From an uncultured Nitrospinota bacterium (lineage in GTDB: Bacteria > Nitrospinota > Nitrospinia > Nitrospinales > JAJDAT01): 64,000 nucleotides of DNA. Every line of letters starts with the position of its first letter. Position 1 is the stretch's first letter. The position numbers and the translations under genes were made by a program. Where the stretch lies: NCBI GenBank assembly GCA_964344185.1, contig CAYFMN010000015.1:12142-76141 (forward strand), given 5' to 3'. Under the pieces are notes generated by a model, which saw only the letters and a list, made by a program, of their open reading frames with translations, was not told the origin of the DNA and did no database searches. This document shows positions 3,823 to 46,917 of this stretch, in pieces.

Positions 3823-5261
3823 GAGGCGACTTTAACGGGAGCGGGAATTGTCGTTACCGTTTTAGGTAAAGATATTTTAAATTTAGTCCCAATTCCCAAT
3901 TGGCTTTCCACTTCAATTTTTCCTTTATGCGCTTCGATAATATATTTAGATATAGCTAATCCCAGGCCGCTTCCGCCCTCTTTTCTGGATCTTGACTTAT
4001 CAACCCGATAAAACCGGTTAAAAATAAAACCTAGATCCTCCTTTGGAATTCCAATCCCGGTATCTTCGATCGAAAGAACTGCCATGTCATTCTTATCCTG
4101 CAAATAAACTTTTACTCGACCTTCATTAGGAGTGTATTTAATCGCGTTGTTCAACATATTCCATATGGTCTGACGAAGGCGCACGGCGTCGCCAACAATT
4201 TGAACAGGCTCTAAAAATGCAATAATAATATCGATATGCTTTTCGCCAGCAATTATTGCGGCGTGCTTGCAAATATCCTCTGTTATAACCGCTAAATCCA
4301 GAGGCTGGAATTCTAATTGAATTTCAGCCTCATCCGCTTTCGACAAATAAAACAAATCCTCCAAAATTTTAGACATATAATTAATTTCTTCCAAATTACT
4401 CGAAATAACTTCCTGATATTCTTCAGGGGTCCTCACTTTTCTTAAAATTAATTCACTTTGCCCTTTCAAAACAGTTAATGGAGTTCTCAACTCATGAGAA
4501 GCGTCGCTGCTAAATTGCCTAACCTGAATAAAAAAGTTTTCTAATCTTTCTAACATTTCGTTAAAAGTTTGCGCTAGCCTTCCTATTTCATCTTGGGCTT
4601 CGGGTACGGGTATTCTTCTGCTTAAATCAATACCGCTCCCAATTTTCCTGGCAGTTTGGGTTATTTTATCCACAGGCTTTAAAGCTCTTCTTGCCATAAA
4701 ACCTCCAACCAAAGTCGCTAAAGCGAGAACGGCGGGAACGGCCGTATACAAAAAGATCTTCAAATTCTTCATTGTTTCGTTGACCGCCATCAATGAAGTT
4801 CCCACTTGAATCAAATTAACCAGCTTGCTCCCACGCAAAACGGGTCTTGTCAAAACGCGGATGTTTTGATTTTCCGAAAGAGTAAAAGTTTCGTAAGAGC
4901 TTTTTCCTTCCAGGGCTTTGGAATAAGCTTCTTCCGTCAAGGGAAATTGGGAAGGTTCGATGTTTTTGGACAAAGACCCTACATTTCCGGAACCATCGTA
5001 AATTCGGTAAAATTTATTGATGTTTCCATAGCCCAAAAACTGCTCTAAGAAATTTTCCAGTCCGGGTAATGGAGCGGAGGTATATCTTGTTAACGCTGTT
5101 TTTGCAACGACATTAGCGGAGATTTTCAGGGAATTATCTACGCTTTCATAAAGTCTCTTGGAAAGGAAAAAATAGAGCAGAAAACTAAAAAGTATCAGGA
5201 TACTGCCAAGAAGAGCAACGTACCAAGCGGTCAATTTTAAACGAACGGAGTAGATGACCAC
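3819..5261 (-). CDS. sensor histidine kinase (2 TM + HAMP + HisKA + HATPase_c), CusS/heavy-metal-sensor-like
   Basis: H-box SDASHELRTPLT, N-box NMLNNAIKYT, G-boxes DTGIGI and GGSGLGLAI. GTG start 4 nt after the regulator's stop. Confidence 0.9.
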   Translation of the reverse strand: MVIYSVRLKLTAWYVALLGSILILFSFLLYFFLSKRLYESVDNSLKISANVVAKTALTRYTSAPLPGLENFLEQFLGYGNINKFYRIYDGSGNVGSLSKNIEPSQFPLTEEAYSKALEGKSSYETFTLSENQNIRVLTRPVLRGSKLVNLIQVGTSLMAVNETMKNLKIFLYTAVPAVLALATLVGGFMARRALKPVDKITQTARKIGSGIDLSRRIPVPEAQDEIGRLAQTFNEMLERLENFFIQVRQFSSDASHELRTPLTVLKGQSELILRKVRTPEEYQEVISSNLEEINYMSKILEDLFYLSKADEAEIQLEFQPLDLAVITEDICKHAAIIAGEKHIDIIIAFLEPVQIVGDAVRLRQTIWNMLNNAIKYTPNEGRVKVYLQDKNDMAVLSIEDTGIGIPKEDLGFIFNRFYRVDKSRSRKEGGSGLGLAISKYIIEAHKGKIEVESQLGIGTKFKISLPKTVTTIPAPVKVAS

Positions 5262-5265
5262 CAGA

Positions 5266-5934
5266 TCACTCCTTCATCACATAACCCACGCCTCTTAAAG
5301 TATGTATCAACTTCTTAGAATAATTTTTATCGATTTTTTTTCTAAGATGATTTACATAGACGTCGATCACATTGGTAAAGGTATCAAAATTATAATCCCA
5401 AACATGCTCCGCAATCATGGTTCGGGTAAGAACCTTTCCTGGAGATCTCATAAAATATTCAAGCAAACTGTATTCTTTCCCGGTCAATTCAATTTCTTCT
5501 CCATTACGGCTTACCTTATGCTTCACCAAATCCAAAGTAAGATCCGCAATTTGTAAAACCGTTTTAGCCTCGTTTTGACCGCGTCTCAATAACACGCGCG
5601 TACGGGCAAGCAACTCTGAAAATGCAAACGGCTTGGTTAAATAATCGTCGGCGCCTCGGTTTAAACCATTTACCTTGTCATCTACAGAATCCTTGGCGGT
5701 CAATAGCAATATTGGCGTAGTAATATTTTTCTTTCTTAACCTGGAAAGAACTTCTAACCCGTCAATTTTAGGAAGCATGATATCAAGGATAATGAGATCA
5801 TAGTTTTCAGTTTCTGCCAAACCTAAACCTTCTTCCCCATCAGTGGCGATATCCGCCGCGTAAAGCTCTTCCTCCAATCCCTTTTTAATAAATCCAGCGA
5901 CTTTTTTTTCATCTTCGACAACTAAAATTCGCAT
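5266..5934 (-). CDS. OmpR-family response regulator (CusR/CopR-like)
   Basis: MRILVVEDE...DLIILDIMLPKIDG...LTAKD...GADDYLTKPF, plus a winged-helix C-terminus (LTGKEYSLLEYF...VRGVGY). Confidence 0.92.
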   Translation of the reverse strand: MRILVVEDEKKVAGFIKKGLEEELYAADIATDGEEGLGLAETENYDLIILDIMLPKIDGLEVLSRLRKKNITTPILLLTAKDSVDDKVNGLNRGADDYLTKPFAFSELLARTRVLLRRGQNEAKTVLQIADLTLDLVKHKVSRNGEEIELTGKEYSLLEYFMRSPGKVLTRTMIAEHVWDYNFDTFTNVIDVYVNHLRKKIDKNYSKKLIHTLRGVGYVMKE

Positions 5935-15031: not shown

Positions 15032-16186
15032 TTAGTAAAACGCAATCATCGAAAAACCAACTGAAGACTCCGTCCCTGTAAATACCGGACTATCACGGAA
15101 CAAACGCCCAAGCGCATTCTTTTCTTTAACGCTACCGCCAATATTACCTTGCAGATATAAATAAATCTGATCCGTCAATGCGTATTCAACTTGCGGAACC
15201 AATTGGAAACTACCGTCAAAAACGTCAGAAAAGGCAAACCTCCGCCAAACGGTAGCGATCCCAACCGGTTGATCCATCTGCAGCCCCAATTGATGGATCG
15301 TTTGATCTCCCTTAGAATCGACAACGCTAAAACCCTTTTCAGAAGAAGAAATAAAATACTCCAGTAAAACGTGAAGTCCCTGGCCCACGTCAAAGGTATA
15401 ATCAGTTCCGAAAACAGAATCGACTCGAAACAGACTTTCACCAGAAACGCTTTCTAAATCAAAACGGGTTTCGTTCCAATAACCAACCTCATACTCGCCC
15501 TTAAAATGATAACCAAACTGTGTTAATTCTTTATCAAAGTTGGCAAGATCCCTTAAATCGGATACCGGCTTATATTGAAAGGCTACTCCAGTTTCCAATC
15601 CGCCAACCAATCCCTCCCAACGACCCCCAACAATCATGCGAGTCTCGCTTTTTGCTGGAACTAACCAGCTTTGAAGTGTTGTGGTTTCGTTTGCATGCCA
15701 GGTAAACCGGAAGCTATCCACTCCAACGGTTAGAGGAAAAACGCCAGAAATAACGCGATTGTCGTAAAAACCAAGAGGCCGAAATAAAGCCCCGGCTCCA
15801 AACAGGATCTGTTGTCTCCCAGCCCGTAATTCTAAATCTTCAGAACCAGAACTCAACCGAGTCCAAGCCCTGAAAAAATCAACGTCCCAATCTTCGACAA
15901 AACCCACTTGCTCGCTAGCGCCCCAGGCGTTTCTATTATCAATAAGGATTTCGTAATCTAACGACCAGGCGGATTTTTGAATAAAGTTACCATAACCGCC
16001 AAGCCGGATTTCGGTAGCGGCGTCGTAATCGTCAGTATCCGAGGGGGAGCCGGATATCCACCTGGTGTCGGCGCGAAGGCGTCCGTTGAAATTATAATCA
16101 AACGCATTTGCGGAATTAACCGCAGAAAACACAAAAACAAAAACGAATAACGCCTCCAAGCTTTTATATTTGAGGCGTAAATTCAT
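15032..16186 (-). CDS. predicted outer-membrane beta-barrel protein (porin-like), unknown family
   Basis: Signal peptide ...FSAVNSANA, alternating amphipathic strands rich in G/Y/D, C-terminal aromatic residues ...SMIAFY. ATG at 16186, one codon inside the TTG of the track. Confidence 0.55.
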   Translation of the reverse strand: MNLRLKYKSLEALFVFVFVFSAVNSANAFDYNFNGRLRADTRWISGSPSDTDDYDAATEIRLGGYGNFIQKSAWSLDYEILIDNRNAWGASEQVGFVEDWDVDFFRAWTRLSSGSEDLELRAGRQQILFGAGALFRPLGFYDNRVISGVFPLTVGVDSFRFTWHANETTTLQSWLVPAKSETRMIVGGRWEGLVGGLETGVAFQYKPVSDLRDLANFDKELTQFGYHFKGEYEVGYWNETRFDLESVSGESLFRVDSVFGTDYTFDVGQGLHVLLEYFISSSEKGFSVVDSKGDQTIHQLGLQMDQPVGIATVWRRFAFSDVFDGSFQLVPQVEYALTDQIYLYLQGNIGGSVKEKNALGRLFRDSPVFTGTESSVGFSMIAFY

Positions 16187-16236
16187 CAACTAATATAGAT
16201 CCAAAGTTTTACCTGATTAATCAACCTGGAAATAAA

Positions 16237-32042: not shown

Positions 32043-35000
32043 TCATTGCCTACCATATCCTCCTCCGCCTGGAGTAAGAATCCTAATGGCGTCGCCAATT
32101 TTTGCGGTTTTTTGATTTTTACCTCCAAGATCCTCAACGCTCCCGGAGTTCGCAATCCAAAGATTTTTTCCCGCTTGACCGTCTTCTCCTCCATCTAAGC
32201 CATATGGCGGATAGACTCTTCTCTCGGATAAAATGGCTACGTTCATAGGACTTAAAAATTCTATTTCGCGAATCAAACCATCGCCGCCGCGATATCGCCC
32301 GCGCCCCCCCGAACCTGATCGATAAGCGAACTCTCTCAATAAAACAGGGTATCTGGACTCCAATATTTCAGGATCGGTTATTCTGGTGTTTGTCATATGA
32401 GTGTGTATGCCGGAACGACAGTTCCACCTAGGCTCGCCCCCAGCCCCGCCGCCAATAGTTTCATAGTATCCAAATTCTTCGTTTCCAAATGTGAGATTGT
32501 TCATACACCCTTGGGAACCTGCCACAGCTTCAAAAGATTTTAAAATAACATCGGTGATTCTTTGGGACGTTAAAACATTGCCGCCACAAACTGCCGCCCC
32601 ATCCATTGGATTTAATATAGAACCCTCTGGTATCGCTACTCTTATAGGAATTAAGAAACCCTCGTTTAATGGAATATCTTCTTGAATTAAGCAACGTAAA
32701 CAATAAAGAATTGCCGAAAAAGTTACCGCCTTGGGAGCGTTTAAGTTTCCTTTAACTTGGGAAGCCGTTCCCGAAAAATCAAACACAGCCTCCCCATTTT
32801 CCTTATCAATTTGAAGCTCTAAAGATACTTTAGAGCCATCGTCCATTAGTTCAACTGACTTGCCGCCTTTCAATCCAGTCCAACTTCTTAACAAAGATCT
32901 AACTGAATCAGCGGAGTTTTTTTGAATCAGGTCCATGTAATTCCGGACCGTTTCAAGCGAATTCTCCTCAACCAATTTTATTAATAACTCTTCGCCTCGA
33001 CGATTTGCCGCAACTTGGGCTTTAAGATCCGAAATATTATCTTTTAAAATTCTTGTTCCTAAAGTTCCATCTTTTTCTCCAGATAATATTTGAGAAATTT
33101 CCTCTTCGCGAAAAGTTCCATTTTCAACTAATTTAAAAAACTGAATCGCGATTCCTTCGTCCTCCAACTTGGTCGAAAAGGGAGGCATAGAACCGGGGGA
33201 AATTCCTCCAACATCGGAGTGGTGACCGCGATTGGCGGCGTAAAACTCTGGAACCCCATTATAAAAAATAGGAGTCGCCACTGTTATATCCGGTAAATGG
33301 CTTCCTCCCATTTTTGGGTGATTAGACACCCAGACATCCCCTTCTTTTGTATTACCTCGAAAAGCTTCAATTAGTTTTCGAACCGTTTCTCCTATAGCTC
33401 CAAGGTGAACTGGCAAATGAGGCGCGTTAGCTACCAGATTTCCCCTCCCGTCGAAAATAGCGCAGGAAAAATCTCTTCTTTCTTTTATGTTGGTGGAAAT
33501 AGCCGTGTTTTCAAGGATGCGACCCATTTGTTCCGCTATTGCCATAAAACGGTGCCCGTACAAAGATAATAAGACTGGATCTTCCGATGAATCGCAATCA
33601 GTTTCAAGGGTCTCAGCCACTATTATTTCAATATCGCCAAATTCAGTAATTTCTGCGCTGCATAAAGGGTCTACAACAATGGTAGACGACGAATCAATAA
33701 TAATAGCGGGACCGCTTATTTTATCGCCGGCTCCCAAATCGCAAAGTTGAAAAACGGGCGTGGGCTTCCATTCTTTATCAAAAAAACAATCCACACTGGT
33801 AATTTGCATAGGGCTACCGGCGCCAGAGAGAATTTTTCTTTGAACAATATTAGGTGAAAGACCTATAGAGCGAATCACGATTTCATCTATCACAATCTCT
33901 CTATCCTCTAATTGAAACCCCATTTCTTTCAAATGCCAGTCTAGAAAATTTTGTTTTATATCCCCATACTCTGAATACCGAATGGCTTTTGATGTATCGG
34001 TATTTTTATATCTCAAAACCAGATATGTTTGAATCTGAATTTGATCTTCTTCAAACCCCTGATCTTTAATATTAGCTATAGCTTTAGCTCGCAGGCGATC
34101 AATATCGTCTAATAGATGAGAAAGATCGTTCAATTCAAAAGCTGTCGGCTGACGAGTTTCTTCAAAAACATCCGCCAATCCCATCCCAAAAGCTGAAAGA
34201 ATTCCAGCAAAACGATGAATAAAGATTTTCTCAATGCCTAAAATTTTTGCAACGGCGCAAGCGTGTTGTCCTGCCGCCCCTCCAAAACAAGCCAGAACGT
34301 GATCAGAAGGGTTAAAACCTTTTTCAGAAGTAATTTCCAGGATTGCTCGCGCCATCGCCTCGTTTGCAACGCGAACAAAACCCGCCGCCACTTCTTCAAG
34401 ATCATAAGGGCGTATCCCTTTCGCCACGTTTTCTTTATTTACTTTTTCCGTAATTTGTTTGATAGAGTTCCTAGCCGCTTCTTTATTTAAAGGTTGATCG
34501 GCATTTGGACCGAAGATATTTGGAAAATAATTTGGCAACAACTTTCCCAAAACTAAATTAGCGTCGGTTAAAGCGACGTGACCATTTTTCCCATAACACG
34601 CCGGCCCGGGGTTAGCCCCTGCCGAATCGGGTCCAACAACAAACAAACCATTTTTAAAATAAAGTCGAGACCCCCCGCCCGCTGCGATTGTTTTAATTTT
34701 TAAATGTGGCGTTTGTAGATGAACGGCTGATATTTCCGATTCATCCATCCATTCAAACTCACCGTCAAATCTGGAAACGTCTGTCGACGTTCCTCCCATA
34801 TCAAAACCAATAAGCGGTTTTTCTGGATATCGATTCCTACCAGTTAATGCATACCCGACGACTCCGCCCGCAGGCCCCGAATAAATTGACCGGCTACCGG
34901 AAAAACGTTCGGCTCCAATCAAACCTCCATCGGACTGCATAAACCATATAGGGAGGTTTTTATTTTGAAAATTAGAACGAAACTCTTCCACATATTTTTG

Positions 35001-35732
35001 AATAATGGGATTTAAATACGCTTCAACGCTCGTCGTTTGACCTCTATCAACAAATTTTATTTTTGGCGATACCGCATGCGATAAAGATATATAGGAAAAC
35101 CCGATTGATTTAGCTAGCTTTTCTATCTCAAGCTCATGTTTTGGAAACGCGTAAGAATGCATACAAACCACCGCCAGGCTTGTTATGCCCTTTTTCTTTA
35201 TTTCCAACAAATCGTCTTTTAATCGACTGGTATCTAAAGGTCGAATGATTTTATAAAATCGACTTGTTTCGGATAAATGCGCGTTTTCCTTATCCTCCCC
35301 AGGTTGTAAAAGCCTGATTCGTTCTTCAACCTCGACAACGGTTTCATAAAATGGCTCGGGTATTTGAATCTTTAAATTAAAAATATCAGGGCGATTTTGC
35401 TTGCCGATACTCAAAAGATCTTTAAATCCTTTGGTTATGATAACTGCGGAACGAACCCCTTTTCGCTCAAGTAATGCATTCGTCGCTAAGGTCGTTCCCA
35501 TTCGAATCCACTCTATCGAACTTGAGTCTTCAAATGGTTTCCCAAGCCGCTCCATAATTCTTCTAATTCCCTCAACGGGAGCGTCCGGGTATTTTTCGGG
35601 ATTTTCAGAAAGGAGTTTTTCTACTATAAACCCAGGAGCCTCTGGGACTTCGGCGTATACATCGGTGAAAGTCCCTCCTCTATCTATCGCAAAGCGGATT
35701 TGCGTTGATCGGAAATTTTGGGAGGATTCCAT
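32043..35732 (-). CDS. 5-oxoprolinase (ATP-hydrolysing), fused hydantoinase A + B domains
   Basis: 1229 aa. N-terminal FAIDRGGTFTD, DMGGTSTDV (HyuA-type). C-terminal hydantoinase_B blocks (NIKERRDFSCAIFD, HLPDITV..PIF, GGGGYG). Confidence 0.93.
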   Translation of the reverse strand: MESSQNFRSTQIRFAIDRGGTFTDVYAEVPEAPGFIVEKLLSENPEKYPDAPVEGIRRIMERLGKPFEDSSSIEWIRMGTTLATNALLERKGVRSAVIITKGFKDLLSIGKQNRPDIFNLKIQIPEPFYETVVEVEERIRLLQPGEDKENAHLSETSRFYKIIRPLDTSRLKDDLLEIKKKGITSLAVVCMHSYAFPKHELEIEKLAKSIGFSYISLSHAVSPKIKFVDRGQTTSVEAYLNPIIQKYVEEFRSNFQNKNLPIWFMQSDGGLIGAERFSGSRSIYSGPAGGVVGYALTGRNRYPEKPLIGFDMGGTSTDVSRFDGEFEWMDESEISAVHLQTPHLKIKTIAAGGGSRLYFKNGLFVVGPDSAGANPGPACYGKNGHVALTDANLVLGKLLPNYFPNIFGPNADQPLNKEAARNSIKQITEKVNKENVAKGIRPYDLEEVAAGFVRVANEAMARAILEITSEKGFNPSDHVLACFGGAAGQHACAVAKILGIEKIFIHRFAGILSAFGMGLADVFEETRQPTAFELNDLSHLLDDIDRLRAKAIANIKDQGFEEDQIQIQTYLVLRYKNTDTSKAIRYSEYGDIKQNFLDWHLKEMGFQLEDREIVIDEIVIRSIGLSPNIVQRKILSGAGSPMQITSVDCFFDKEWKPTPVFQLCDLGAGDKISGPAIIIDSSSTIVVDPLCSAEITEFGDIEIIVAETLETDCDSSEDPVLLSLYGHRFMAIAEQMGRILENTAISTNIKERRDFSCAIFDGRGNLVANAPHLPVHLGAIGETVRKLIEAFRGNTKEGDVWVSNHPKMGGSHLPDITVATPIFYNGVPEFYAANRGHHSDVGGISPGSMPPFSTKLEDEGIAIQFFKLVENGTFREEEISQILSGEKDGTLGTRILKDNISDLKAQVAANRRGEELLIKLVEENSLETVRNYMDLIQKNSADSVRSLLRSWTGLKGGKSVELMDDGSKVSLELQIDKENGEAVFDFSGTASQVKGNLNAPKAVTFSAILYCLRCLIQEDIPLNEGFLIPIRVAIPEGSILNPMDGAAVCGGNVLTSQRITDVILKSFEAVAGSQGCMNNLTFGNEEFGYYETIGGGAGGEPRWNCRSGIHTHMTNTRITDPEILESRYPVLLREFAYRSGSGGRGRYRGGDGLIREIEFLSPMNVAILSERRVYPPYGLDGGEDGQAGKNLWIANSGSVEDLGGKNQKTAKIGDAIRILTPGGGGYGRQ

Positions 35733-36773: not shown

Positions 36774-37613
36774 TTAATTTATAAATATCGACGACACTTG
36801 GTCCAAGCTATTTTCTACTTCCTCTTTAATCGCATTCATTTTTTCTTCCGAAACGCCTAAGATTTCAACGAAATCTATATCTTCTGTTCCGGCTTTAGGG
36901 CCGACTCCATTGGATACTTTTTGGCAATTTAATAGCATATTCGATAAAGCGACAACTTCTTGTGATCCCTTTTTTAAAGGTTGATGATGCTTCTGAACCA
37001 AGGAAACTACTTGAGGTGCAATGGGCCACCATTTTTCTATATACTTCGCGCCTACCTCCGCATGATCAATTCCAAAGGTCTTAACTTCTAAAGTTTCTAA
37101 CGGTTGCTCGATATCCTTCGATTTTGCCAAAAACTCCGAATATTCCTTTGGAAAAAAATTTAAAAAAACTAAAACTCCAATATCATGCATTAATCCCGCC
37201 AAATAGGCATTATCGCGAGACTCTTCGTCTTGCTCAAAAAGTTCGCTTAGAGATTTAGAACAAATGGCGGCGGCAAATGAATGTTTCCAAAATAATACCT
37301 GATTAATAGCTTTTGTTTTTGAAGAAACTTTTGGCAATTCCAGAGTATATGCCAGGTCTAAAACCATTTTTAGGCCTAATCTGCCTAAAGCGTTTTCTAG
37401 GTCTTCTGCTTTATCTCTACCTCCTCCAATAAAAACACTATTTGCTAGCTTCATCAGCCGTCCAGATAAAACTGGTTCGGTTTTTATCAAATCGGAAATA
37501 TCGGCTATGCACGAATCTGGATCGTCTATTATTTGCTCTAATTTTATGAGTATTTCTGGTAATGGAGGTAAGTTCTGTTGAGTATTTACCGCTTCCAGTA
37601 TTTTATCCCGCAT
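36774..37613 (-). CDS. HDOD-domain signalling protein (paralog 1)
   Basis: LPPLPEILIKLEQII.DP......ISDLI..EPVLSGRLMKLANS...; AYLAGLMHDIGVLVF; DHAEVGAKYIEKW. Confidence 0.85.
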   Translation of the reverse strand: MRDKILEAVNTQQNLPPLPEILIKLEQIIDDPDSCIADISDLIKTEPVLSGRLMKLANSVFIGGGRDKAEDLENALGRLGLKMVLDLAYTLELPKVSSKTKAINQVLFWKHSFAAAICSKSLSELFEQDEESRDNAYLAGLMHDIGVLVFLNFFPKEYSEFLAKSKDIEQPLETLEVKTFGIDHAEVGAKYIEKWWPIAPQVVSLVQKHHQPLKKGSQEVVALSNMLLNCQKVSNGVGPKAGTEDIDFVEILGVSEEKMNAIKEEVENSLDQVSSIFIN

Positions 37614-37718: not shown

Positions 37719-38561
37719 TTAATTTCCTCTAAAAAGAGAATTTAATTCTCCAATAGAATCTGAAATATTTTCCTTTAATTCTAAAAGCTCCATCTCAGAA
37801 ACCCCTAATAATTGGTTAAAATCAAGTTCTTCGTTGATCGTTGGTCCAACTTTATTTTCAAAACCAAGGGAGTTTACAAAGCTGTTTGCTAAACTTAGAA
37901 CATTTTTTACATCGCCCTGAAGCGGATCATGGTGTCTTTTTATTTGCTCCACAACCGCTTCTGGAACGGGCCACCACTTTTCAATATATTTTGCTCCTAA
38001 TTCAACATGGCTGATTCCAAAACGTTCGTTTTCCAGCTTTTCCAACGCTTTTTCTTCCTCGGCAATCTTTTCTAAAAAACTTCCATATTCTTTGGGAATA
38101 TTATGCAAAAAAACTAAAATTCCTACGTCATGCATTAATCCGCTTAAATATGCGTTTTCCCGTTGGTCTTCACCTTGTGAAAAAAGTTCGCTCATCGCAC
38201 GGGAGCAAATTGCAGTTCCAAACGCATGTTGCCAAAAAGCGCTTTGATTAATAATTTTATTTCCTGAAGAAATTTTAGGTAATTCTATGGTGTAAGCTAA
38301 ATCTAGCACCATTTTTAACCCTAACCTTCCAATAGCGTTATCCAAATCTTCCGCTTTTTCTCTACCGCCGCTAACAAAAACGCTATTCGCAAGTCTCATT
38401 AAATTTCCAGATAAAACGGGTTCTGTATAAATCAAACTGGAAATGTCTGAAATACAAGTTTCTGGATCGTATACCTTCTGCTCAATTTTTGATAAAACTT
38501 CTGGCAAAGGAGGTAAGTTTTGCTCTTTATTAATGATGTCTAAAATCTCATCGCGTGTCAT
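37719..38561 (-). CDS. HDOD-domain signalling protein (paralog 2)
   Basis: Colinear with paralog 1. ATG at 38561 (MTRDEILDII) preferred over the TTG at 38588, by analogy with MRDKILEAV. Confidence 0.85.
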   Translation of the reverse strand: MTRDEILDIINKEQNLPPLPEVLSKIEQKVYDPETCISDISSLIYTEPVLSGNLMRLANSVFVSGGREKAEDLDNAIGRLGLKMVLDLAYTIELPKISSGNKIINQSAFWQHAFGTAICSRAMSELFSQGEDQRENAYLSGLMHDVGILVFLHNIPKEYGSFLEKIAEEEKALEKLENERFGISHVELGAKYIEKWWPVPEAVVEQIKRHHDPLQGDVKNVLSLANSFVNSLGFENKVGPTINEELDFNQLLGVSEMELLELKENISDSIGELNSLFRGN

Positions 38562-38763
38562 AACCCCACATAACTCTAAAAAATTCAAATAGTTATAAGA
38601 AAAATAATATTTATTTTTATTGACCTTAAGTTAAACAAAATCTACAATATAAAATAAAAATAACTTTATTTTACAATAATTTACATAAATTAAAAACTGC
38701 TTCTTTCGGCAAGATACCGAAAATTTTGCTGTTTATTGATTTTTCTTTGATTTTTTCAATCCA

Positions 38764-39516
38764 ATGATCAGAATTTTCCTAAATAATAGATTCCAGAAAA
38801 CACTGATCCCAATCTCCGTCGTTCTAATTGCCCTTTGCTTGTCAATTAGCTGCTCAAAAAGGAAACTAACTCCGATTAAATTTACCCCCTCTCCCCAAAA
38901 AGCTCAAACTACGTATAACCTACCATATCGAGTTCAAGGAAAAACTTACTATCCCATTTCCTCTTCAAAAAATTTCACTCAAAAGGGGATAGCCTCTTGG
39001 TATGGACCCAAATTTCATGGTAAGTTGACCTCTAATAAGGAGCGATATAATATGTATCAGTTAACTGCCGCTCATAAAACGCTTCCTTTTAATACGAGAG
39101 TTCGAGTAACTAACATAGATAATGGACTGGATGTCCTCGTTAGAATAAATGATCGAGGACCTTTTGTCGGCAACAGGATTATAGACCTAAGCCTTGCCGC
39201 CGCCAAAAAATTAAACATGCTCGAATCCGGTACTGCGCCAGTTAAACTAAGAGCGGTGTATTACCCCAATCAAACCGGAAAAACTAAGCGACCAGCTAAT
39301 AAGTTTGGAGTACAAGTAGGCTTTTTCAAAGAAATCCAGAACGCAAAAAATTTAAAAAGTAAAACTAGAGAAAGTTTTGTACAAAAATTTAACTCAAATG
39401 GCGACCAATTTTATCGAGTCGTTGTTGGGAACTATAGTCACTTTGATCAAGCTTGGAATCTCTTGAAAAAACTTAAGTCCGATAGCTTTCCAAAAGCTTT
39501 TATAATTAATTTCTAA
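38764..39516 (+). CDS. rlpA: septal ring lytic transglycosylase RlpA (DPBB + SPOR domains), lipoprotein
   Basis: Lipobox LSISC; [43 protein letters not shown]...VRINDRGPF; C-terminal [12 protein letters not shown]....A......YRVVVGNY. Confidence 0.88.
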
Positions 39517-39572: not shown

Positions 39573-40055
39573 ATGCGCCTGCCCGTTTTGGATAAATTAG
39601 AAAAAGAATTGATGGAATCCGAACGAGAATTAAAAGTCGATATTCCAAAAGCGTTGAAAATTGCTACCGATATGGGAGACCTTAGCGAAAATGCGGAATA
39701 TAAAGCCGCTAAAGAAAGACAAATGCTTTTGGAGGCCAGGATTTCTTTACTGCAAAAGCGGATATCCGAAGTCACTTCTTTAAATATTAATAGAATTCCA
39801 AAAGACAGGGCTGGCATAGGAAGCCAAATAGAACTAGAAGACGCAGAAACCGGCGAAACAAAAAACTTTGAGTTAGTTTTTCCAGAAGAGGTTTCTCCAG
39901 ATGAAGGGAAAATTTCCCCCGGCTCGCCGCTTGGTAAATCTCTTTTGGGAAAACAAGAAGGCGACGAAGTCCGAATTTCTATTGCTGGTAAAGTTAATCT
40001 TTACGAATTGGCGAATTTAAAAACTATCCATGACATTATGGAAGAATCAGAATAA
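39573..40055 (+). CDS. greA: transcription elongation factor GreA
   Basis: GDLSENAEYKAAKERQ...EARI..L, and C-terminal ISPGSPLGKSLLGKQEGDEV. Confidence 0.9.
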   Translation: MRLPVLDKLEKELMESERELKVDIPKALKIATDMGDLSENAEYKAAKERQMLLEARISLLQKRISEVTSLNINRIPKDRAGIGSQIELEDAETGETKNFELVFPEEVSPDEGKISPGSPLGKSLLGKQEGDEVRISIAGKVNLYELANLKTIHDIMEESE

Positions 40056-40060
40056 TCATA

Positions 40061-40690
40061 ATGGCTGTTAAAGCGTTAATCCCATTCGACGAGATTGCTT
40101 CCAGTCATCCGATGTTTTCCCATTTGGACGCAACTCCTGACTGGAACCAAATATTTCCTAATAACTACCCAATAAAACTGGAAATAGGCTTTGGTAACGG
40201 TAGTTTTATTATAGATATGGCAATGAAAGAGCCCAAAACAAATTTTGTGGGCGTTGAAATGTACCATAAAGGAATCCGCAAGACGATTACGCGTGCGGAA
40301 AAACGGCTTATTGAAAACATCCATGTTGTTTATGGCGACGCTAGAAAGAGAACCCAAAGTATTTTTAGTGACGAAACGCTGGAAGCAATATATATTAACT
40401 TTCCAGATCCATGGCCCAAAAAACGACATGTCAAAAGACGTCTTATCACCGCAAATTTCGTTGAAATTTTATCGAATATGCTGGTTCCATCAGGAGAACT
40501 TAGAATTGCAACCGACTGCGAAACATACGCTCGAGATATGTTAACGTTTCTTGAAAACTCTTCGCTGAGAAATAAAGCTGGCTCTTTTGAATTTACCAAT
40601 TCTCGGGAAGATATTCCACAATCGAAATATGAGAAAAATTATATCAAACAGGGTAAAAAAATATATTATTTAGACTACATTAAAAGCTAA
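40061..40690 (+). CDS. trmB: tRNA (guanine46-N7)-methyltransferase
   Basis: LEIGFGNGSF....A...P..NFVGVE....; INFPDPWPKKRH.KRRL. Confidence 0.9.
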   Translation: MAVKALIPFDEIASSHPMFSHLDATPDWNQIFPNNYPIKLEIGFGNGSFIIDMAMKEPKTNFVGVEMYHKGIRKTITRAEKRLIENIHVVYGDARKRTQSIFSDETLEAIYINFPDPWPKKRHVKRRLITANFVEILSNMLVPSGELRIATDCETYARDMLTFLENSSLRNKAGSFEFTNSREDIPQSKYEKNYIKQGKKIYYLDYIKS

Positions 40691-40752
40691 AATAGCTTAA
40701 GTAAAGATGCTCTTTAAATACAATAGAACATAACGATTTTTAGGAGGCCTCC

Positions 40753-42783
40753 TTGCCCAAAGAACGCATTCTAGTCGTCGACGACGAAAAAAATATCGTA
40801 AGCTCCCTTTCTGGAATTCTGTCCGACGAAGGTTATGATGTCTCATCCGCTGAAGATGGATTAGAAGCTCTGGAACGAATTCAAAACGACCCCCCTGATT
40901 TAGTTTTATTAGATATCTGGATTCCCGGAATGGATGGTATCGAAGTATTGAGAACTATCAAAACTTACCAAAAGGAATTGCCGGTTCTTATTATGTCGGG
41001 GCATGCTTCAATAGATACCGCTGTACGAGCGACAAAATTGGGCGCCATCGATTTTGTCGAAAAACCGTTTTCGTTAGATCAAATTACCCAAGCTGTCGCT
41101 AATGGACTTAAAGAGGGTAAAGGAATTACAAAGCAAAACGGCGTCGATTTTACGGATAAAATGGACAGGATACTCCGTTTTCAGATGATGATTGACGTGA
41201 AAAAGGGAGTTAAAAACGCTTCTAAAAATTCTCGTCCGGTACTATTAGTAGGCGAAAAAGGCACAGGAAAAGAATTAGTCGCACAAGCAATACATAGGCA
41301 AAGCAAACAAAATGATAGACCATTTATCAAACTAAATTGCGCTGTTAGACGCATGCAAGATATCCAGGCGCAACTATTTTGCTCGGCTAAAAAAAATGGA
41401 GATTCATCTCAAAATACCTCTGGAGCAAAAGAAAAAGCTGTTTTTTTAAGTAACATCGAATCGCTATCTAAGGGACTTCAGGAAAAACTATCCCTCGCTT
41501 TAAGAAATGAAACCGTAAAAAAGAACGAAACAGTTTTAGATTTTTTGCCCATCCGAGTGTTTGCTTCCTCATCTAAAAACCTTGAAACGCTTGCCAAAAA
41601 AGGTCAATTAAATAAAGATCTTTACGACATTTTCGCTAAAGATACTATTCAAATTCCACCGCTTCGAGAGCATTCCGAAGCTATTCCTGAACTGATTGAA
41701 AATTATTTTGAATCTTGGGAAAAGAATGGAACTCCAAAACCAACGATCAAAGAAGACGCTATAAAAACTCTCTGCGAATATGATTGGCCTGGCAATATCA
41801 AAGAGTTAAAAGAAGTTTTAGAACAAATCTGGCTGCCTGGCACCGGAAATAAAGAAATAAATCTTCAAGATTTGCCTTCTTATATTCGACTTTCGAATTC
41901 TCCAAATTTAGAGGATAAATCCACAACAAAACCAAAAAGTGGAAAGAAAAAATCACTCCACCAGCGAACCCTTAAAAGAAGCGTTGTCTTGTGTGGAAGC
42001 GGACTTCACTCAGGAATCAAGACGGGGTTAATATTACAACCTCTTCCGGCTGGCAGCGGCATTGTATTTGGAGATATAACTACTGGGGAAACAATTCAAG
42101 CAAAACTAAATAATGTCCAGTCTACTAATTATTCCACCTGCCTGCGAAAGGGACTTGTCTCTATAGCCACTATCGAACACATTATGGCTGTTCTCCATAT
42201 GTATCGCATAACCAATCTATTGATAAAAATTGGAGACGAAGCTCCAGTAATGGATGGCTCCGCTAAAGACTTTTGCCAACTAATAGAAGATGGCGGATTT
42301 GAAGATCAAGATGATTTCTACGAAGAGCTAGTAGTTGATAAAACATATACTTTTGGAACGCCAGACAGCGGCAAACCTTATATATCTATAGAACCTTTCG
42401 ATACATTTAGCGCAAGCTATCATATGGAATACCCAGAACCAATAGGAACTCAAGATTACACTTATGAATTTTTTGGTTCAGAGAGCTTCAAAGAGGAAAT
42501 AGCTCCAGCCAGAACTTTTGGTTTTTTGGAAGACGTCGCTCAATTAACTAAGATGGGGTTTGCTTGCGGTGGAAAATTAGACAACTTTATCTTACTTGGC
42601 GATAAAAAGGTGCTTAATACAGAGCTAAGATTTAACGATGAGTTTGTTCGTCACAAAATCCTTGATATCATTGGCGATTTTTATCTATTGGGTAAACCCA
42701 TTCGAGGAAAAATTAAAGCTTATAAATCTGGACACACTGAAAATGTTGGCTTGATGAAACAAATTCAAGCCAATTTGTGTTAA
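40753..42783 (+). CDS. lpxC: fusion protein: response-regulator receiver + degenerate sigma54-type AAA+ module + complete UDP-3-O-acyl-GlcNAc deacetylase (LpxC)
   Basis: TTG start 5 nt after TAGGAGG. REC: ILVVDDE...LVLLDIWIPGMDG...KPF. AAA+: GEKGTGKE retained, Walker B DE replaced (AVFLSNIE), no GAFTGA loop, no C-terminal HTH. From aa 403: HQRTLKRSVVLCGSGLHSG...TIEHIM...APVMDGSA...ARTFGFLED...FVRHKILDIIGDFYLLG...YKSGHTEN, colinear with E. coli LpxC. Confidence 0.85.
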   Translation: MPKERILVVDDEKNIVSSLSGILSDEGYDVSSAEDGLEALERIQNDPPDLVLLDIWIPGMDGIEVLRTIKTYQKELPVLIMSGHASIDTAVRATKLGAIDFVEKPFSLDQITQAVANGLKEGKGITKQNGVDFTDKMDRILRFQMMIDVKKGVKNASKNSRPVLLVGEKGTGKELVAQAIHRQSKQNDRPFIKLNCAVRRMQDIQAQLFCSAKKNGDSSQNTSGAKEKAVFLSNIESLSKGLQEKLSLALRNETVKKNETVLDFLPIRVFASSSKNLETLAKKGQLNKDLYDIFAKDTIQIPPLREHSEAIPELIENYFESWEKNGTPKPTIKEDAIKTLCEYDWPGNIKELKEVLEQIWLPGTGNKEINLQDLPSYIRLSNSPNLEDKSTTKPKSGKKKSLHQRTLKRSVVLCGSGLHSGIKTGLILQPLPAGSGIVFGDITTGETIQAKLNNVQSTNYSTCLRKGLVSIATIEHIMAVLHMYRITNLLIKIGDEAPVMDGSAKDFCQLIEDGGFEDQDDFYEELVVDKTYTFGTPDSGKPYISIEPFDTFSASYHMEYPEPIGTQDYTYEFFGSESFKEEIAPARTFGFLEDVAQLTKMGFACGGKLDNFILLGDKKVLNTELRFNDEFVRHKILDIIGDFYLLGKPIRGKIKAYKSGHTENVGLMKQIQANLC

Positions 42784-43148: not shown

Positions 43149-45179
43149 ATGAGTTTTAACGAAAAAAAATTTAGACATATTTTTTTGTTTTGGTTTGCAT
43201 GGACACTAACAATCAGTGCCTCTCTCGCTTACGGTAAAAACGAACTTGAACTAAAAATCCTAAAAGAACTTTCGTTAAACGAACTATTAGATATTAAAGT
43301 TACTTCCGTCGCTAAAAAGGAGCAGCGACTTTTTAAATCCGCTTCGGCGATTTATGTAATAACAAACGAAGACATTCGTCGTTCTGGTCACACGACTATT
43401 GCGGAAGCCTTAAGAATGGCTCCAGGAATGCAAGTGGCCCACTTGGATTCAAATACTTGGGCTATTACATCACGCGGTCTAAACTCACGGTTCGCAAGTA
43501 AACTTTTGGTAATGGTAGATGGCAGATCTGTTTACTCTCAAGTTTTTTCAGGAGTTTACTGGGATGAAGTGGATGTTGCGCTTGAAGACATAGATAGAAT
43601 TGAAGTCATTAGGGGGCCAGGAGGGACAATATGGGGAGCTAACGCGGTAAACGGGGTAATAAATATCATTACTAAAAATGCCAAGGACACACAGGGTGGA
43701 TTCATCAACGCTGGCGGAGGCGATCAAGAACAGGGCTTCGGAACGTTCCGTTATGGAGAAAAAATAGATCAAAATAAAAGCATTAGAGTTTATGGAAAAT
43801 ATTATGAAAGAGACAAGTTTGGGGAAAGATTAGGAAATACGCCCGCCGATGCTTGGAAAGCTTTTCGTGGCGGCTTTAGAATGGATTGGGAAGTTTCTGA
43901 AAAAAGCTCCTTAACTTTCCAAGGCGATTATTACAATGGGGAATCTGGAGAAAAAGCAGACAACAATGTCGTATCTTTTGCATTTCCCGGAACTGCAAGC
44001 TTTGATCGCAATGTACAAATAGATGGCGGTAATTTCCTAGCGCGTTGGAAAAAAATAAATTCTGAAAACTCGGATATGGAGCTTCAATTTTATTTTAACC
44101 GACAAAAGCGCGACGGAAGCCCTTTAACTGAAATCCTATTAGATACTTATGACGCAGACTTTCAACATCGATTTCAATTAGACCAACGACATGAAATCAC
44201 CTGGGGCCTGGGTCAACGTTTTATTAGAGATTCCTTTGCCAGCAGTCTTTCATTACAATTTGACACAACCAGCCGCTGGAACTACCGTTTTGGAACCTTT
44301 ATCCAGGACGAGATTACCCTAATTCCTGATAGCCTTATAATGATCTTGGGATCCAAGTTCTCGCAAAATAATTACACAGGGTTTGAGATTCAACCCAGCG
44401 GAAGACTTCTATGGACTCCTAATGATCGTCATACAGTTTGGGGAGCTGTTTCCCGCGCAGTTAGAACCCCCTCTCGAGCTGAAGACTCAATTAGAGCGAA
44501 TGGAAACGTCTTGCCCGGTCCAGCAGTGGTTTCATTTCTTGGAAGCCAAAACTATGACTCTGAAGACTTATTAGCTTTTGAAACAGGTTACCGCTTTCGG
44601 CCTTCAAATCAACTATTCTTTGACTTGTCCCTGTTTTATAACTTTTATGAAAACTTAAATTCTAGAGAGCCAATTACTCCATTTGTTGAAGCTTCACCTA
44701 CTCCCACACATTCTGTTATTCCATTCATTTTAGAAAATAAAAGTTCGGGAGAAACGTACGGCTTGGAGTTTGACGTTAAATGGAAACCTAAAAATTGGTG
44801 GCAATTAAGCGCAGGTTTTAATTGGTTAGAAGTTTCTTTAAATTTGGACCCAGGAAGCCAAGCTATATCTACATTATCTACCGAAGGAAACGATCCTGAA
44901 TTTCAAGCAAACATAAGATCTCAGTTAGATCTTCCTTATAACTTTGAGTTTGATACCGCATTCTACTACGTCGACAATTTAGAGAGGTTTAGGGTCCCTA
45001 GTTATATAAGAGCCGATTTGCGATTAGGATGGCGACCTACCAAAAACTGGGACATTAGCTTAGTGGTCCAGAACTTACAGGACTCTGAACACTTGGAATA
45101 TGGAGAAGAAACTCCTCGGTTATTATCGCTAACAGAAGTACAACGTTCCGTCTACGGTAAAATCACCTGGAATTTTTAG
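43149..45179 (+). CDS. TonB-dependent outer-membrane receptor
   Basis: Signal peptide. Plug: ELSLNELLDIKVTSVAKKEQ...SASAIYVITNEDIRRSG..TIAEALRMAPG..V; RGPGGTIWGANAVNGVINIITK. C-terminal barrel ending ...YGKITWNF. Confidence 0.9.
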   Translation: MSFNEKKFRHIFLFWFAWTLTISASLAYGKNELELKILKELSLNELLDIKVTSVAKKEQRLFKSASAIYVITNEDIRRSGHTTIAEALRMAPGMQVAHLDSNTWAITSRGLNSRFASKLLVMVDGRSVYSQVFSGVYWDEVDVALEDIDRIEVIRGPGGTIWGANAVNGVINIITKNAKDTQGGFINAGGGDQEQGFGTFRYGEKIDQNKSIRVYGKYYERDKFGERLGNTPADAWKAFRGGFRMDWEVSEKSSLTFQGDYYNGESGEKADNNVVSFAFPGTASFDRNVQIDGGNFLARWKKINSENSDMELQFYFNRQKRDGSPLTEILLDTYDADFQHRFQLDQRHEITWGLGQRFIRDSFASSLSLQFDTTSRWNYRFGTFIQDEITLIPDSLIMILGSKFSQNNYTGFEIQPSGRLLWTPNDRHTVWGAVSRAVRTPSRAEDSIRANGNVLPGPAVVSFLGSQNYDSEDLLAFETGYRFRPSNQLFFDLSLFYNFYENLNSREPITPFVEASPTPTHSVIPFILENKSSGETYGLEFDVKWKPKNWWQLSAGFNWLEVSLNLDPGSQAISTLSTEGNDPEFQANIRSQLDLPYNFEFDTAFYYVDNLERFRVPSYIRADLRLGWRPTKNWDISLVVQNLQDSEHLEYGEETPRLLSLTEVQRSVYGKITWNF

Positions 45180-45256
45180 TGGAAAAATTCGCAATAAGCA
45201 ACCCTAGATTGTTTTAAAACTGCTGATTTAGATAAAACTTTTTTATAAGAATCGTT

Positions 45257-45799
45257 TTGAATAAGATATTTATTTTTTTAATTATTTTAATTTCAATATC
45301 GCTCAATTTGTTTCCCAAAAAAACTTTTGGAGACATTCGAGAAGATAAAGTTCAAGCTGCTTTTATTTATAAATTTATACAGTTTATTGAATGGCCAGCT
45401 AATCTAAAACTAACGTCAAATAAATTCATAATTGGGGTTTTTGGGGAAACAAATATGCGTGAACTGCTAAAAACCTTTTCCGGTGAAAAAGTAAACGGAC
45501 GTTTTATAGAAATACATTCTATAAAGAACTTAAGCGATATCAAAAAATGTCATATTCTTTTTATAAGTCCCTCGGAAATCGGCAACTTAAATAAGATTTT
45601 AGAGACTTCAAAAGAGTCAAGCGTTTTAACAATAAGCCGGATGAAAGACTTTGCGGACAAAGGCGGAATGATTAACTTTTTTATTAACGAAGAAAGAGTT
45701 AGGTTCGAAATCAACCCAGATTCAGCTAAAAAAGCAGGATTGAAAATTAGCTCTAAATTGCTAAAAGTTTCCAAAGTGATCCGATCTCCAAATACATAA
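45257..45799 (+). CDS. YfiR-family (DUF4154) periplasmic protein
   Basis: VQAAFIYKFIQFIEWP, CHILFIS, SVLTIS....FADKGGMINFF......RFEIN...AKKAGLKISSKLLKVS. TTG start. Confidence 0.78.
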   Translation: MNKIFIFLIILISISLNLFPKKTFGDIREDKVQAAFIYKFIQFIEWPANLKLTSNKFIIGVFGETNMRELLKTFSGEKVNGRFIEIHSIKNLSDIKKCHILFISPSEIGNLNKILETSKESSVLTISRMKDFADKGGMINFFINEERVRFEINPDSAKKAGLKISSKLLKVSKVIRSPNT

Positions 45800-45858: not shown

Positions 45859-46917
45859 TCAAAGAAGTTGTTGCTGTTCTATAAACTTTTTCATTTCTAG
45901 AGCCAAAAGTCTGGAACCTTCTGGCGACATATGGTAGTGGTCAATATAAAGTTTTTTGGACTCTTCTAGACTATATAATCCTTTAGTCTTTTCTAAAAAA
46001 TCTAACGTGGGATAACTTGTTTCTCCAAGCCATGTTTTAAAAGCCAGCCAATTATTCTTAAAATAAAATGGCGTTGAGTCGACAACAAGCTTTGCATAAT
46101 TCTTAGGGTCTTTCTTTTTCGCTTCTTCCATAAAATCGAGAATTGATTTTTTATCGTCGAAATTGCTTTGAGAAGGCCACAAAACATAAAATAACTTTGA
46201 ATTATGAGATTTAGCCAAATCGTTAATTTCTGCCAATAACCGCATAATCAGCTCTTTAATTTGCGCTGGAGGAATATTCTCGATTGAACAATATTTTTCC
46301 CTTAATTTAGCAAATGGATTTTTCTGTAAAAACCAAGAAGTCGAAAATAGGTTAGGGCAAGAAAAACGGGAAATTCTTGGCTCAACCGTCTTCAGCTTAC
46401 CGTTTTCAATTTTAAATAATGGCTTTGAATATCCATAACTAACATTTGACTGTGTATTCCTAATGTCGTTACCAGTACAAATAACTACCCCAACCAATTT
46501 CGGCCTCAGTTCTCCAATGAACTTTTTTAACCGAAGATAATATTGACCAATCCCATAACCTCCTACGCCTAAATTCAAGACCTGAAAATCTGGCAGCTTT
46601 TGATCTAAATAATAAGTGGCAGTTTCGTTATCCTGGACACCCAGCCCATAAATTATAGAATCACCTACAATAAGGATTTTTCCCTTGGCAGGGTCGGCTT
46701 CTTCCCCTCTTAATCCATCTGAGTTAGTTGTATAGGTAATTTTTTTTTTGACGATAACTTTACTAGGAAAATTAGACCAACCAAGCTCTTCATCGTACAT
46801 TTTCATACGATCGGCGTCTCGCGTTATGTAGTTAAAACCTTCAATTATTCCTATCAACACAATTAAAAACGCGGGAGTAATCAAAACCATAATCAAATAT
46901 TTTAATGAGGATTTCAT
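45859..46917 (-). CDS. membrane-anchored SGNH/GDSL-like hydrolase (paralog of 60072..61109)
   Basis: N-terminal TM; ILIVGDSIIYGLGV (block I GDS); GVGGYGIGQYY; TGNDI; DHYHMSPEG (block V DxxH). Confidence 0.7.
   Translation of the reverse strand: MKSSLKYLIMVLITPAFLIVLIGIIEGFNYITRDADRMKMYDEELGWSNFPSKVIVKKKITYTTNSDGLRGEEADPAKGKILIVGDSIIYGLGVQDNETATYYLDQKLPDFQVLNLGVGGYGIGQYYLRLKKFIGELRPKLVGVVICTGNDIRNTQSNVSYGYSKPLFKIENGKLKTVEPRISRFSCPNLFSTSWFLQKNPFAKLREKYCSIENIPPAQIKELIMRLLAEINDLAKSHNSKLFYVLWPSQSNFDDKKSILDFMEEAKKKDPKNYAKLVVDSTPFYFKNNWLAFKTWLGETSYPTLDFLEKTKGLYSLEESKKLYIDHYHMSPEGSRLLALEMKKFIEQQQLL

Follow-up and report, generated by a model that had tools for sequence, protein, structure and literature searches.

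A receiver–LpxC fusion protein with a degenerate sigma54-type AAA+ module in Nitrospinota

LpxC performs the committed step in the synthesis of lipid A, controls the flux into lipopolysaccharide (LPS) and is a major antibiotic target. In the genome of an uncultured Nitrospinota bacterium, we find the enzyme as the C-terminal part of a single polypeptide that begins with a two-component receiver (REC) domain and carries a degenerate sigma54-type AAA+ module in its centre. The gene lies in a 64,000-nucleotide stretch of contig CAYFMN010000015.1 (assembly GCA_964344185.1, positions 12,142 to 76,141), which is called the window here; coordinates count from its first letter unless another locus is named. 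We suggest, with a probability of roughly 0.6, that the fusion is an NtrX-derived response regulator with LpxC as its output, phospho-controlled by an NtrY-type kinase. No description of a receiver–LpxC fusion was found in open-access papers and preprints, and neither 'fused' nor 'receiver' appears in the text of a 2025 Journal of Biological Chemistry review on how lipid A is regulated (PMC12444477).

Domain architecture of the fusion protein

An initial annotation of the window, made from its letters, had described one uninterrupted open reading frame (ORF) of 676 codons with a TTG start behind a TAGGAGG motif, all of which the sequence confirms. Pfam returned the three domains it had named (PF00072, PF00158 and PF03331) and, in addition, AAA_lid_14. 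Its individual motifs (LVLLD54IW, GEKGTGKE, AVFLSNIESL and PPLREH), the replacement of GAFTGA and the absence of a helix-turn-helix (HTH) were each verified. The resulting layout is as follows.

40741–40747, + strand: Shine-Dalgarno sequence TAGGAGG, 5 nt ahead of the TTG (read from the sequence)
40753–42783, + strand: whole ORF, 676 amino acids (aa), in the order REC, pseudo-AAA+, lid, linker, LpxC (Pfam and full-length homologues)
40768–41097, + strand: NtrX-type receiver, aa 6–115 (Pfam PF00072 Response_reg, E = 3.5e-33)
40912–40914, + strand: codon of the acceptor D54, within the receiver
41182–41664, + strand: degenerate sigma54-type AAA+ core, aa 144–304 (PF00158 Sigma54_activat, E = 1.4e-23, aa 144–292)
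41251–41274, + strand: Walker A motif GEKGTGKE, aa 167–174, kept (sequence)
41371–41436, + strand: QLFCSAKKNGDSSQNTSGAKEK, aa 207–228, in place of the ELFGHEKGAFTGA sigma54-contact loop (alignment with GAFTGA-bearing stand-alone relatives)
41437–41466, + strand: Walker B remnant AVFLSNIESL, aa 229–238, with S233/N234 for Asp-Glu (sequence)
41665–41904, + strand: AAA+ lid, aa 305–384, with PPLREH and WPGNIKEL (PF25601 AAA_lid_14, E = 1.4e-15)
41905–41958, + strand: basic flexible linker of 18 residues, aa 385–402, the site of an HTH in 84 of 121 aligned proteins, deleted here
41959–42768, + strand: complete LpxC domain, aa 403–672 (PF03331, E = 4.8e-81, aa 404–672)

The PF03331 match spans profile positions 1–267 of 268, and the protein ends 4 residues past the LpxC profile. 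Against the TIGR00325 lpxC equivalog of NCBIfam, it scores 244.3 bits at a cut-off of 187.25. The motifs GLHSG, TIEH, MDGSA, ARTFGF, RHKILDIIGD and KSGH occupy the same alignment columns as their counterparts in the LpxC of Pseudomonas aeruginosa. Family-wide counts given here and below refer to an alignment of the fusion protein with 120 homologues (121 sequences), in which H419, E475/H476, T588, H634/K635/D638/D642 and H661 are invariant; the catalytic and zinc residues are likewise invariant in 17 short forms of the family. We take the Escherichia coli counterparts to be the zinc ligands H79, H238 and D242, the catalytic E78/H265, and T191, K239, D246 and H19; these residue roles come from the established LpxC literature, the alignment partner here being the P. 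aeruginosa enzyme. Compared by Foldseek with the structures of P. aeruginosa, E. coli and Aquifex aeolicus LpxC, the predicted domain gave template modelling (TM) scores of 0.82–0.89 and root-mean-square deviations of 2.7–3.1 Å, and the model adopts the two-layer beta-alpha-alpha-beta LpxC fold. The claim of a full LpxC with all its catalytic residues is thus borne out by Pfam, TIGR00325 and the alignment, and the C-terminal domain is best read as a functional LpxC. The window contains no second LpxC.

The fusion protein has no C-terminal FtsH-type tail. This absence had been reported correctly, but as a peculiarity it does not stand: it is ordinary, because LpxC outside enterobacteria lacks the FtsH degron (PMC12444477).

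Of the central module, Walker A is retained, with G167, G170, G172 and K173 invariant in 121/121 sequences. The Walker B Asp-Glu pair occurs in none of the 121 (family consensus YLSNIE), and neither does the FREDLYYRL arginine finger, which reads GQLNKDL in the fusion protein. GAFTGA is absent from the fusion protein and from all fused forms compared, and the Arg of GNVREL (sensor II) is replaced by Lys in GNIKEL. In more divergent fused proteins (P0135, P0138), even the Walker A lysine is gone. Stand-alone NtrC/NtrX-like relatives from a 1.84-billion representative library keep all the features lost in the fused forms, including a Walker B that reads LFLDEIG. Since no aligned member keeps the Walker B Asp-Glu, GAFTGA or the arginine finger, the crippled AAA+ module is, on this alignment, a family-wide trait and not peculiar to a single gene; what had been claimed for one protein therefore extends to the whole family. 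The module has probably retained nucleotide binding and oligomerisation, without ATP hydrolysis or sigma54 contact.

Neither Pfam nor the family alignment revealed an HTH or any other output domain besides LpxC in the fusion protein. However, 84 of the 121 proteins are 720–750 aa long and carry about 50 extra residues between lid and LpxC. Pfam called no HTH in this insert at E up to 10, a negative that we set aside because profile–profile comparison detected one: in hhalign, the insert matches the C-terminal HTH of 17 stand-alone NtrX/NtrC-like regulators over 50 columns (Prob 98.5%, E = 3e-15), identifying it as a Fis-type HTH. The HTH looks canonical in basal fused lineages, is degenerate in Nitrospinaceae and is deleted in the fusion protein and 36 others of the 121. 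Its presence or absence changes at least 7 times on a neighbour-joining (NJ) tree of the 121 proteins, built from REC, AAA+, lid and LpxC columns; this tree, like that of the LpxC domains described below, has no support values, and both support repeated loss, not exact event counts. Because the inserts of 84 of the 121 proteins match a Fis-type HTH, the ancestral architecture is best reconstructed as REC–AAA+–HTH–LpxC.

An AlphaFold2 monomer, predicted from the family alignment, had well-folded domains, a mean predicted local distance difference test (pLDDT) score of 78.8 and a predicted TM score (pTM) of 0.48. Three segments were disordered, namely aa 123–135, aa 214–225 (the GAFTGA position) and aa 382–399, the last two with a pLDDT below 50. 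The top Foldseek matches of the N-terminal part were NtrC1 (1ny5) and Brucella NtrX (5m7n/o/p).

Receiver conservation, descent and spread of the family

The receiver possesses the acidic pocket D10/D11, the acceptor D54, S82 and K104. D11, D54, S82 and K104 are invariant in 121/121 sequences, and position 10 is Asp in 120/121. Across the 121 proteins, the mean pairwise identity is 0.82 for the receiver and 0.83 for LpxC, as opposed to 0.54 for the AAA+ module, 0.49 for the lid and 0.2–0.34 for the linkers. Judged by this conservation, the receiver is constrained as strongly as the enzyme.

The best NCBIfam model of the N-terminal 380 residues is NtrX (NF051870), with 256 bits at a cut-off of 600 and coverage of only profile positions 3–388 of 452. 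As the score stays under the cut-off and there is no HTH, the fusion protein does not belong to the NtrX family; by its sequence, it is a relative of NtrX by descent.

A search of 5.8 billion proteins yielded more than 120 full-length clusters with REC, sigma54-type AAA+, lid and LpxC at 57–93% identity. Those with names derive from Nitrospinota/Nitrospinaceae metagenome-assembled genomes (MAGs), and their annotation reads simply LpxC or, in some cases, NtrX. In a second search, which covered one genome per GTDB species with peptide patterns specific to the query fusion, the closest relatives (92–95% identity) were Nitrospinales/Nitrospinia MAGs. The long-read complete chromosomes OZ253496.1, OZ250172.1 and OZ245011.1 have the same ORF, and so do the cultured isolate Nitrospina sp. 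32_T5 and two MAGs that bear the label Thermodesulfobacteriota. With more than 120 independently assembled full-length homologues, the AAA+/LpxC junction is continuous. The architecture is standard in Nitrospinota, not rare. The initial annotation knew of no characterised protein with it; the fusion is widespread in sequence databases and yet, as far as we found, undescribed.

Shorter relatives broaden the picture. A representative search returned about 20 clusters (at 50% identity) of proteins with REC and LpxC but no AAA+, 417–461 aa in length, and a profile search showed such short forms to be numerous, with source names that include Deltaproteobacteria, Terriglobales and Spirochaetota. REC–LpxC and REC–HTH–LpxC relatives carry Deltaproteobacteria, Acidobacteriota and Spirochaetota labels. 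An intermediate architecture was observed on a Tara Oceans Nitrospinota contig:

L091, 9234–10751: REC–HTH–LpxC, 505 aa, AAA+ deleted; follows DUF4390–NtrY and precedes formyltransferase–lolA

In total, four architectures were found (REC–AAA*–HTH–LpxC, REC–AAA*–LpxC, REC–HTH–LpxC and REC–LpxC, where AAA* is the degenerate module), in which only REC and LpxC are constant. The NJ tree of LpxC domains intersperses long with short forms, a pattern that points to the central modules having been deleted repeatedly.

Three further proteins depart from these architectures. P0142 (615 aa) is AAA+–lid–LpxC with no receiver and is either a truncated gene call or a real architecture; P0160 consists of LpxC only and may be a truncated gene call. 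P0161 (417 aa) looks like REC and a pseudo-AAA+ with the degenerate motifs of the fused type (LILNEI, no GAFTGA, and GNIKEL) and ends without LpxC; it too may be either a truncated call or a real further architecture.

Candidate kinase and gene neighbourhood

In several lineages, the fused gene directly follows a sensor kinase gene; L042, L043, L085, L087 and L091 are five independent loci of this kind. A DUF4390 gene and a 740–752-aa kinase precede it in L042 and L043 (short forms), L087 (long form) and L091 (REC–HTH–LpxC). Without the DUF4390 gene, the kinase stands directly upstream of the short form of L085 and of the long form of L088, and in L041 the C-terminal end of a kinase lies just upstream. 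The domains of these kinases (NtrY_N, HAMP, PAS, HisKA and HATPase) make up the NtrY architecture, and the stop and start codons of kinase and fusion overlap in L043 and L088. Downstream of the fusion, L087 has purM, formyltransferase, lolA, rseP, rimP and nusA, the same order as after the Nitrospinaceae fusion, which indicates that the loci are homologous and that Nitrospinaceae have had the kinase displaced.

Nitrospinota commonly encode NtrY-type kinases. On three Nitrospinaceae-type contigs, an orphan DUF4390–NtrY adjoins mutS with no regulator beside it, and this orphan would complement the orphan fusion. A 74–76-aa ORF without a Pfam match was observed directly downstream of the orphan pair (L089 9432–9662, L090 6076–6306, L092 7378–7602), at the position where other lineages have ntrX or the ntrX::lpxC fusion.

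No NtrY is encoded in the window. Its only histidine kinase was considered as a partner and rejected, being of the heavy-metal type with a regulator of its own:

3819–5261, − strand: heavy-metal CztS/SilS/CopS-type sensor kinase (TIGR01386, 293.3 bits at a cut-off of 292.55)
5266–5934, − strand: response regulator gene beside it

Upstream of the fusion, three genes share its strand (Pfam):

38764–39516, + strand: rlpA
39573–40055, + strand: greA
40061–40690, + strand: trmB, 62 nt from the fusion

The order rlpA–greA–trmB–fusion, with hydantoinase–MBL–HDOD genes on the opposite strand, is conserved in about 35 Nitrospinota loci, and the four genes probably form one transcription unit. The best promoter-like site lies at 38620–38648, but the promoter and terminator counts for 38.5–43.3 kb do not exceed those of shuffled sequence, so that the operon structure rests on synteny and short spacers only. 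In most loci, formyltransferase, lolA and rseP follow the fusion; none of the three is found anywhere in the window. Its clade alone has a different pair at this place:

43149–45799, + strand: TonB-dependent receptor (676 aa) and YfiR/HmsC-like DUF4154 protein, downstream of the fusion

Several other features of the window were observed in passing. Divergent from rlpA–greA–trmB–fusion stand two tandem HDOD/HD-domain paralogues (36774–37613 and 37719–38588, − strand) that are 56–57% identical to each other, where many other Nitrospinaceae loci have a single HDOD gene. The 1229-aa protein encoded at 32043–35732 (− strand) is a fusion of hydantoinase/oxoprolinase A and B subunits whose position is conserved in Nitrospinota loci. 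GDSL-like lipase/acylhydrolase paralogues, 35% identical, are encoded at 45859–46917 (− strand), just downstream of the TonB receptor/YfiR pair, and at 60072–61109 (+ strand). A 385-aa ORF at 15032–16189 (− strand) has no Pfam match at E <= 1e-5.

Proposed control of LpxC and comparison with known systems

The following course of events would account for these data. An ancestral NtrY/NtrX operon may have been joined to lpxC, giving REC–AAA+–HTH–LpxC. After the fusion, the parts devoted to transcription control would have decayed, with loss of GAFTGA, the catalytic Walker B residues and the Arg finger and degeneration of the HTH. The decayed parts would then have been deleted repeatedly: the HTH in the fusion protein, and the AAA+ module or both in other lineages. 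In the present-day protein, an NtrY-type membrane sensor kinase, whose gene would lie elsewhere in the genome in the window's clade, would phosphorylate Asp54. The ensuing change in the receiver, probably in its dimer or oligomer state, would be relayed through a nucleotide-binding, non-hydrolysing AAA+ module and would raise or lower the activity or stability of LpxC. In this way, an envelope or redox signal could be coupled directly to lipid A flux. Phosphorylation of the receiver, NtrY as its kinase, and the resulting change in LpxC activity with its direction are what we infer here from conservation and gene order. The initial annotation had proposed that lipid A synthesis is gated through an AAA+ scaffold. 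The comparative data lend strong support to gating via the receiver, through the conservation of REC and LpxC and the upstream NtrY kinases; an essential AAA+ scaffold is not supported, because REC–LpxC and REC–HTH–LpxC relatives have deleted the AAA+ module.

NtrYX is known to govern lpxC expression and the LPS level in the Alphaproteobacteria Rhodobacter sphaeroides and Caulobacter (C. crescentus): its loss in R. sphaeroides indirectly increases lpxC mRNA 8.8-fold and raises LPS, and it represses lpxC in Caulobacter too (PMC12444477, PMC7240162). Several points weigh against our proposal. The R. sphaeroides effect is transcriptional and indirect, so that the analogy covers the pathway and not the mechanism. 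No kinase gene adjoins the fusion in the window or in any of the Nitrospinaceae long-form loci examined. Finally, the AlphaFold2 monomer gives no confident inter-domain arrangement at its pTM of 0.48, and hence no structural hint of how a receiver would act across a disordered 18-residue linker; given this pTM and the disordered linkers, we draw no conclusion on active-site occlusion.

Phosphorylation might instead govern the turnover of the protein. The REC/pseudo-AAA+ part would then be a regulated degron or adaptor surface for FtsH, Lon or Clp, replacing the C-terminal tail/LapB system of enterobacteria. In the organisms studied, proteolysis is the main control of LpxC, and the FtsH tail is absent outside enterobacteria (PMC12444477); the fusion protein stops 4 residues after the LpxC profile, and its flexible linkers (aa 123–135 and aa 382–399) could be protease entry sites. 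Yet no protease or adaptor gene conserved beside the fusion was found in the neighbourhoods compared, and short REC–LpxC forms exist without the AAA+ surface. We consider turnover control unlikely, and it is a variant of the preferred explanation that sequence data cannot separate from it.

We give still less weight to the idea that LpxC is constitutive and its N-terminus vestigial, the fusion having become fixed in the clade as a neutral accident and the receiver and AAA+ module no longer signalling. The visible decay or deletion of AAA+ and HTH would fit such a history, as would the missing kinase gene beside the fusion in the window's clade. A vestigial receiver, however, would not be expected to be conserved like the enzyme, with the residues of its phospho-chemistry invariant or nearly so in 121 sequences. 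It is also kept in nearly every architecture, even where all that stood between it and LpxC is gone (the exceptions, P0142 and P0160, are perhaps truncated calls), and kinase adjacency is kept in several lineages.

That the LpxC fold serves as a ligand sensor, an option the initial annotation had offered, is disfavoured for this protein and appears improbable. It would sense UDP-3-O-acyl-GlcNAc or a lipid A intermediate while a separate housekeeping lpxC is located elsewhere. Basal long forms do keep a canonical-looking Fis-type HTH, such as 'TAEKIGISEKQLKKYVKQYGI' in P0363, and HTH-bearing proteins could unite a transcription factor and an enzyme or sensor within a single polypeptide. The fusion protein itself, though, has no DNA-binding or other output domain to which a sensor could report, all zinc ligands and catalytic residues are invariant, the lpxC equivalog cut-off is passed, and these proteins are given as their MAGs' LpxC by the NCBI and JGI pipelines. 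The initial annotation had wished to exclude an artefact, in which a chimeric contig or an overlooked frameshift had merged adjacent ntrX-like and lpxC genes. Nothing in its favour was found, and comparison with the homologues refutes it: more than 120 clusters, drawn from independent samples and assemblers, share this uninterrupted ORF, with long-read complete chromosomes and an isolate among them, and the family alignment shows no start codon conserved before the LpxC domain.

If LpxC is indeed under phospho-control by an NtrY-type kinase, the fusion would at once be a response regulator whose output is enzymatic and an instance of lpxC being controlled by NtrYX. To our knowledge, the established controls of LpxC all act via proteolysis, trans-acting protein partners or transcription. 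Direct two-component control, if true, would introduce a new principle into the regulation of outer-membrane biogenesis. The signal and core role of NtrYX are still debated, and the fusion would supply an independent genomic argument linking NtrYX to LPS homeostasis, in agreement with its repression of lpxC in R. sphaeroides and Caulobacter. A bolder proposal, to which we give slightly less than an even chance, is that a kinase directly switches the receiver-fused, essential envelope enzyme up or down by phosphorylation. Such proteins would form a new class of enzymatic-output response regulators in several phyla, with HTH-bearing members bifunctional as transcription factor and enzyme, and the fusion could be a 'Rosetta stone' for LpxC/LPS control as an ancient core function of NtrYX. 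The family also offers a natural reductive series, in which first the ATPase residues, then the HTH and then the whole AAA+ module are lost, and which is useful for understanding the repurposing of modules like those of bacterial enhancer-binding proteins (bEBPs). In Nitrospinota, the main nitrite oxidisers of the sea, the standard annotation of lpxC is moreover the long, AAA+-containing form.

Stand-alone LpxC proteins (E. coli, P. aeruginosa and A. aeolicus) share 35–37% identity and the same catalytic and zinc residues with the fusion, and those of A. aeolicus and of alpha- and betaproteobacteria likewise have no C-terminal FtsH degron. The fusion adds about 400 N-terminal signalling residues, whereas the regulators of stand-alone LpxC act in trans; those known are FtsH/LapB/PbgA, Lon and small proteins in other taxa. 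LpxC–FabZ of Bacteroidota/Chlorobiota (NF009667/PRK13188) is a precedent for LpxC in a multidomain polypeptide, and the NF009667 model matches the LpxC part of the fusion only, with 203 bits. There, the partner is a second enzyme of the pathway and is C-terminal; in the fusion it is an N-terminal signalling module.

With bEBPs such as NtrC, NtrC1, DctD and ZraR, the fusion shares the order REC–AAA+–lid, Walker A, PPLR and WPGN. Unlike them, it has no GAFTGA, catalytic Walker B Glu, FREDLYYRL Arg finger or HTH, and Lys replaces the GNVREL Arg; for want of these motifs, it is predicted to be unable to remodel the sigma54 holoenzyme. Closer still is NtrX (Brucella abortus, 5m7n/5m7o/5m7p), which also combines REC with a sigma54-type AAA+ module without GAFTGA. 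Among the NCBIfam and PDB sequence matches to the N-terminal 380 residues, NtrX ranks first, and its Foldseek rank for the N-terminus is just behind NtrC1 (1ny5). However, NtrX has a Fis-type HTH as its last domain and acts on DNA, while the fusion ends in an enzyme, and Brucella NtrX keeps the Walker B ILYLDEVADM where the fusion has VFLSNIESL.

A regulatory link between a response regulator and lpxC has been mapped in Desulfovibrio vulgaris, where lpxC is the only target mapped for DVU2934, a response regulator that carries a DNA-binding domain; in Syntrophobacter fumaroxidans, lpxC adjoins the operon of an orthologous DVU2934-type regulator (PMC3333781). Set beside the fusion by description only, this regulon is a plausible neighbourhood from which a fusion could originate. 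It exerts transcriptional control through separate proteins, in contrast to the single chain described here.

In enzymatic-output response regulators, phosphorylation gates the enzyme by relief of inhibition or by dimerisation, and our working model for the fusion follows this pattern. The CheB methylesterase, the GGDEF proteins PleD/WspR, the HD-GYP protein RpfG and RsbU-type PP2C phosphatases carry an N-terminal receiver on an enzyme, as the fusion does. Their outputs are signalling or chemotaxis enzymes, whereas that of the fusion is an essential biosynthetic enzyme for an envelope lipid, and the fusion, unlike them, retains an AAA+ relic between receiver and output.

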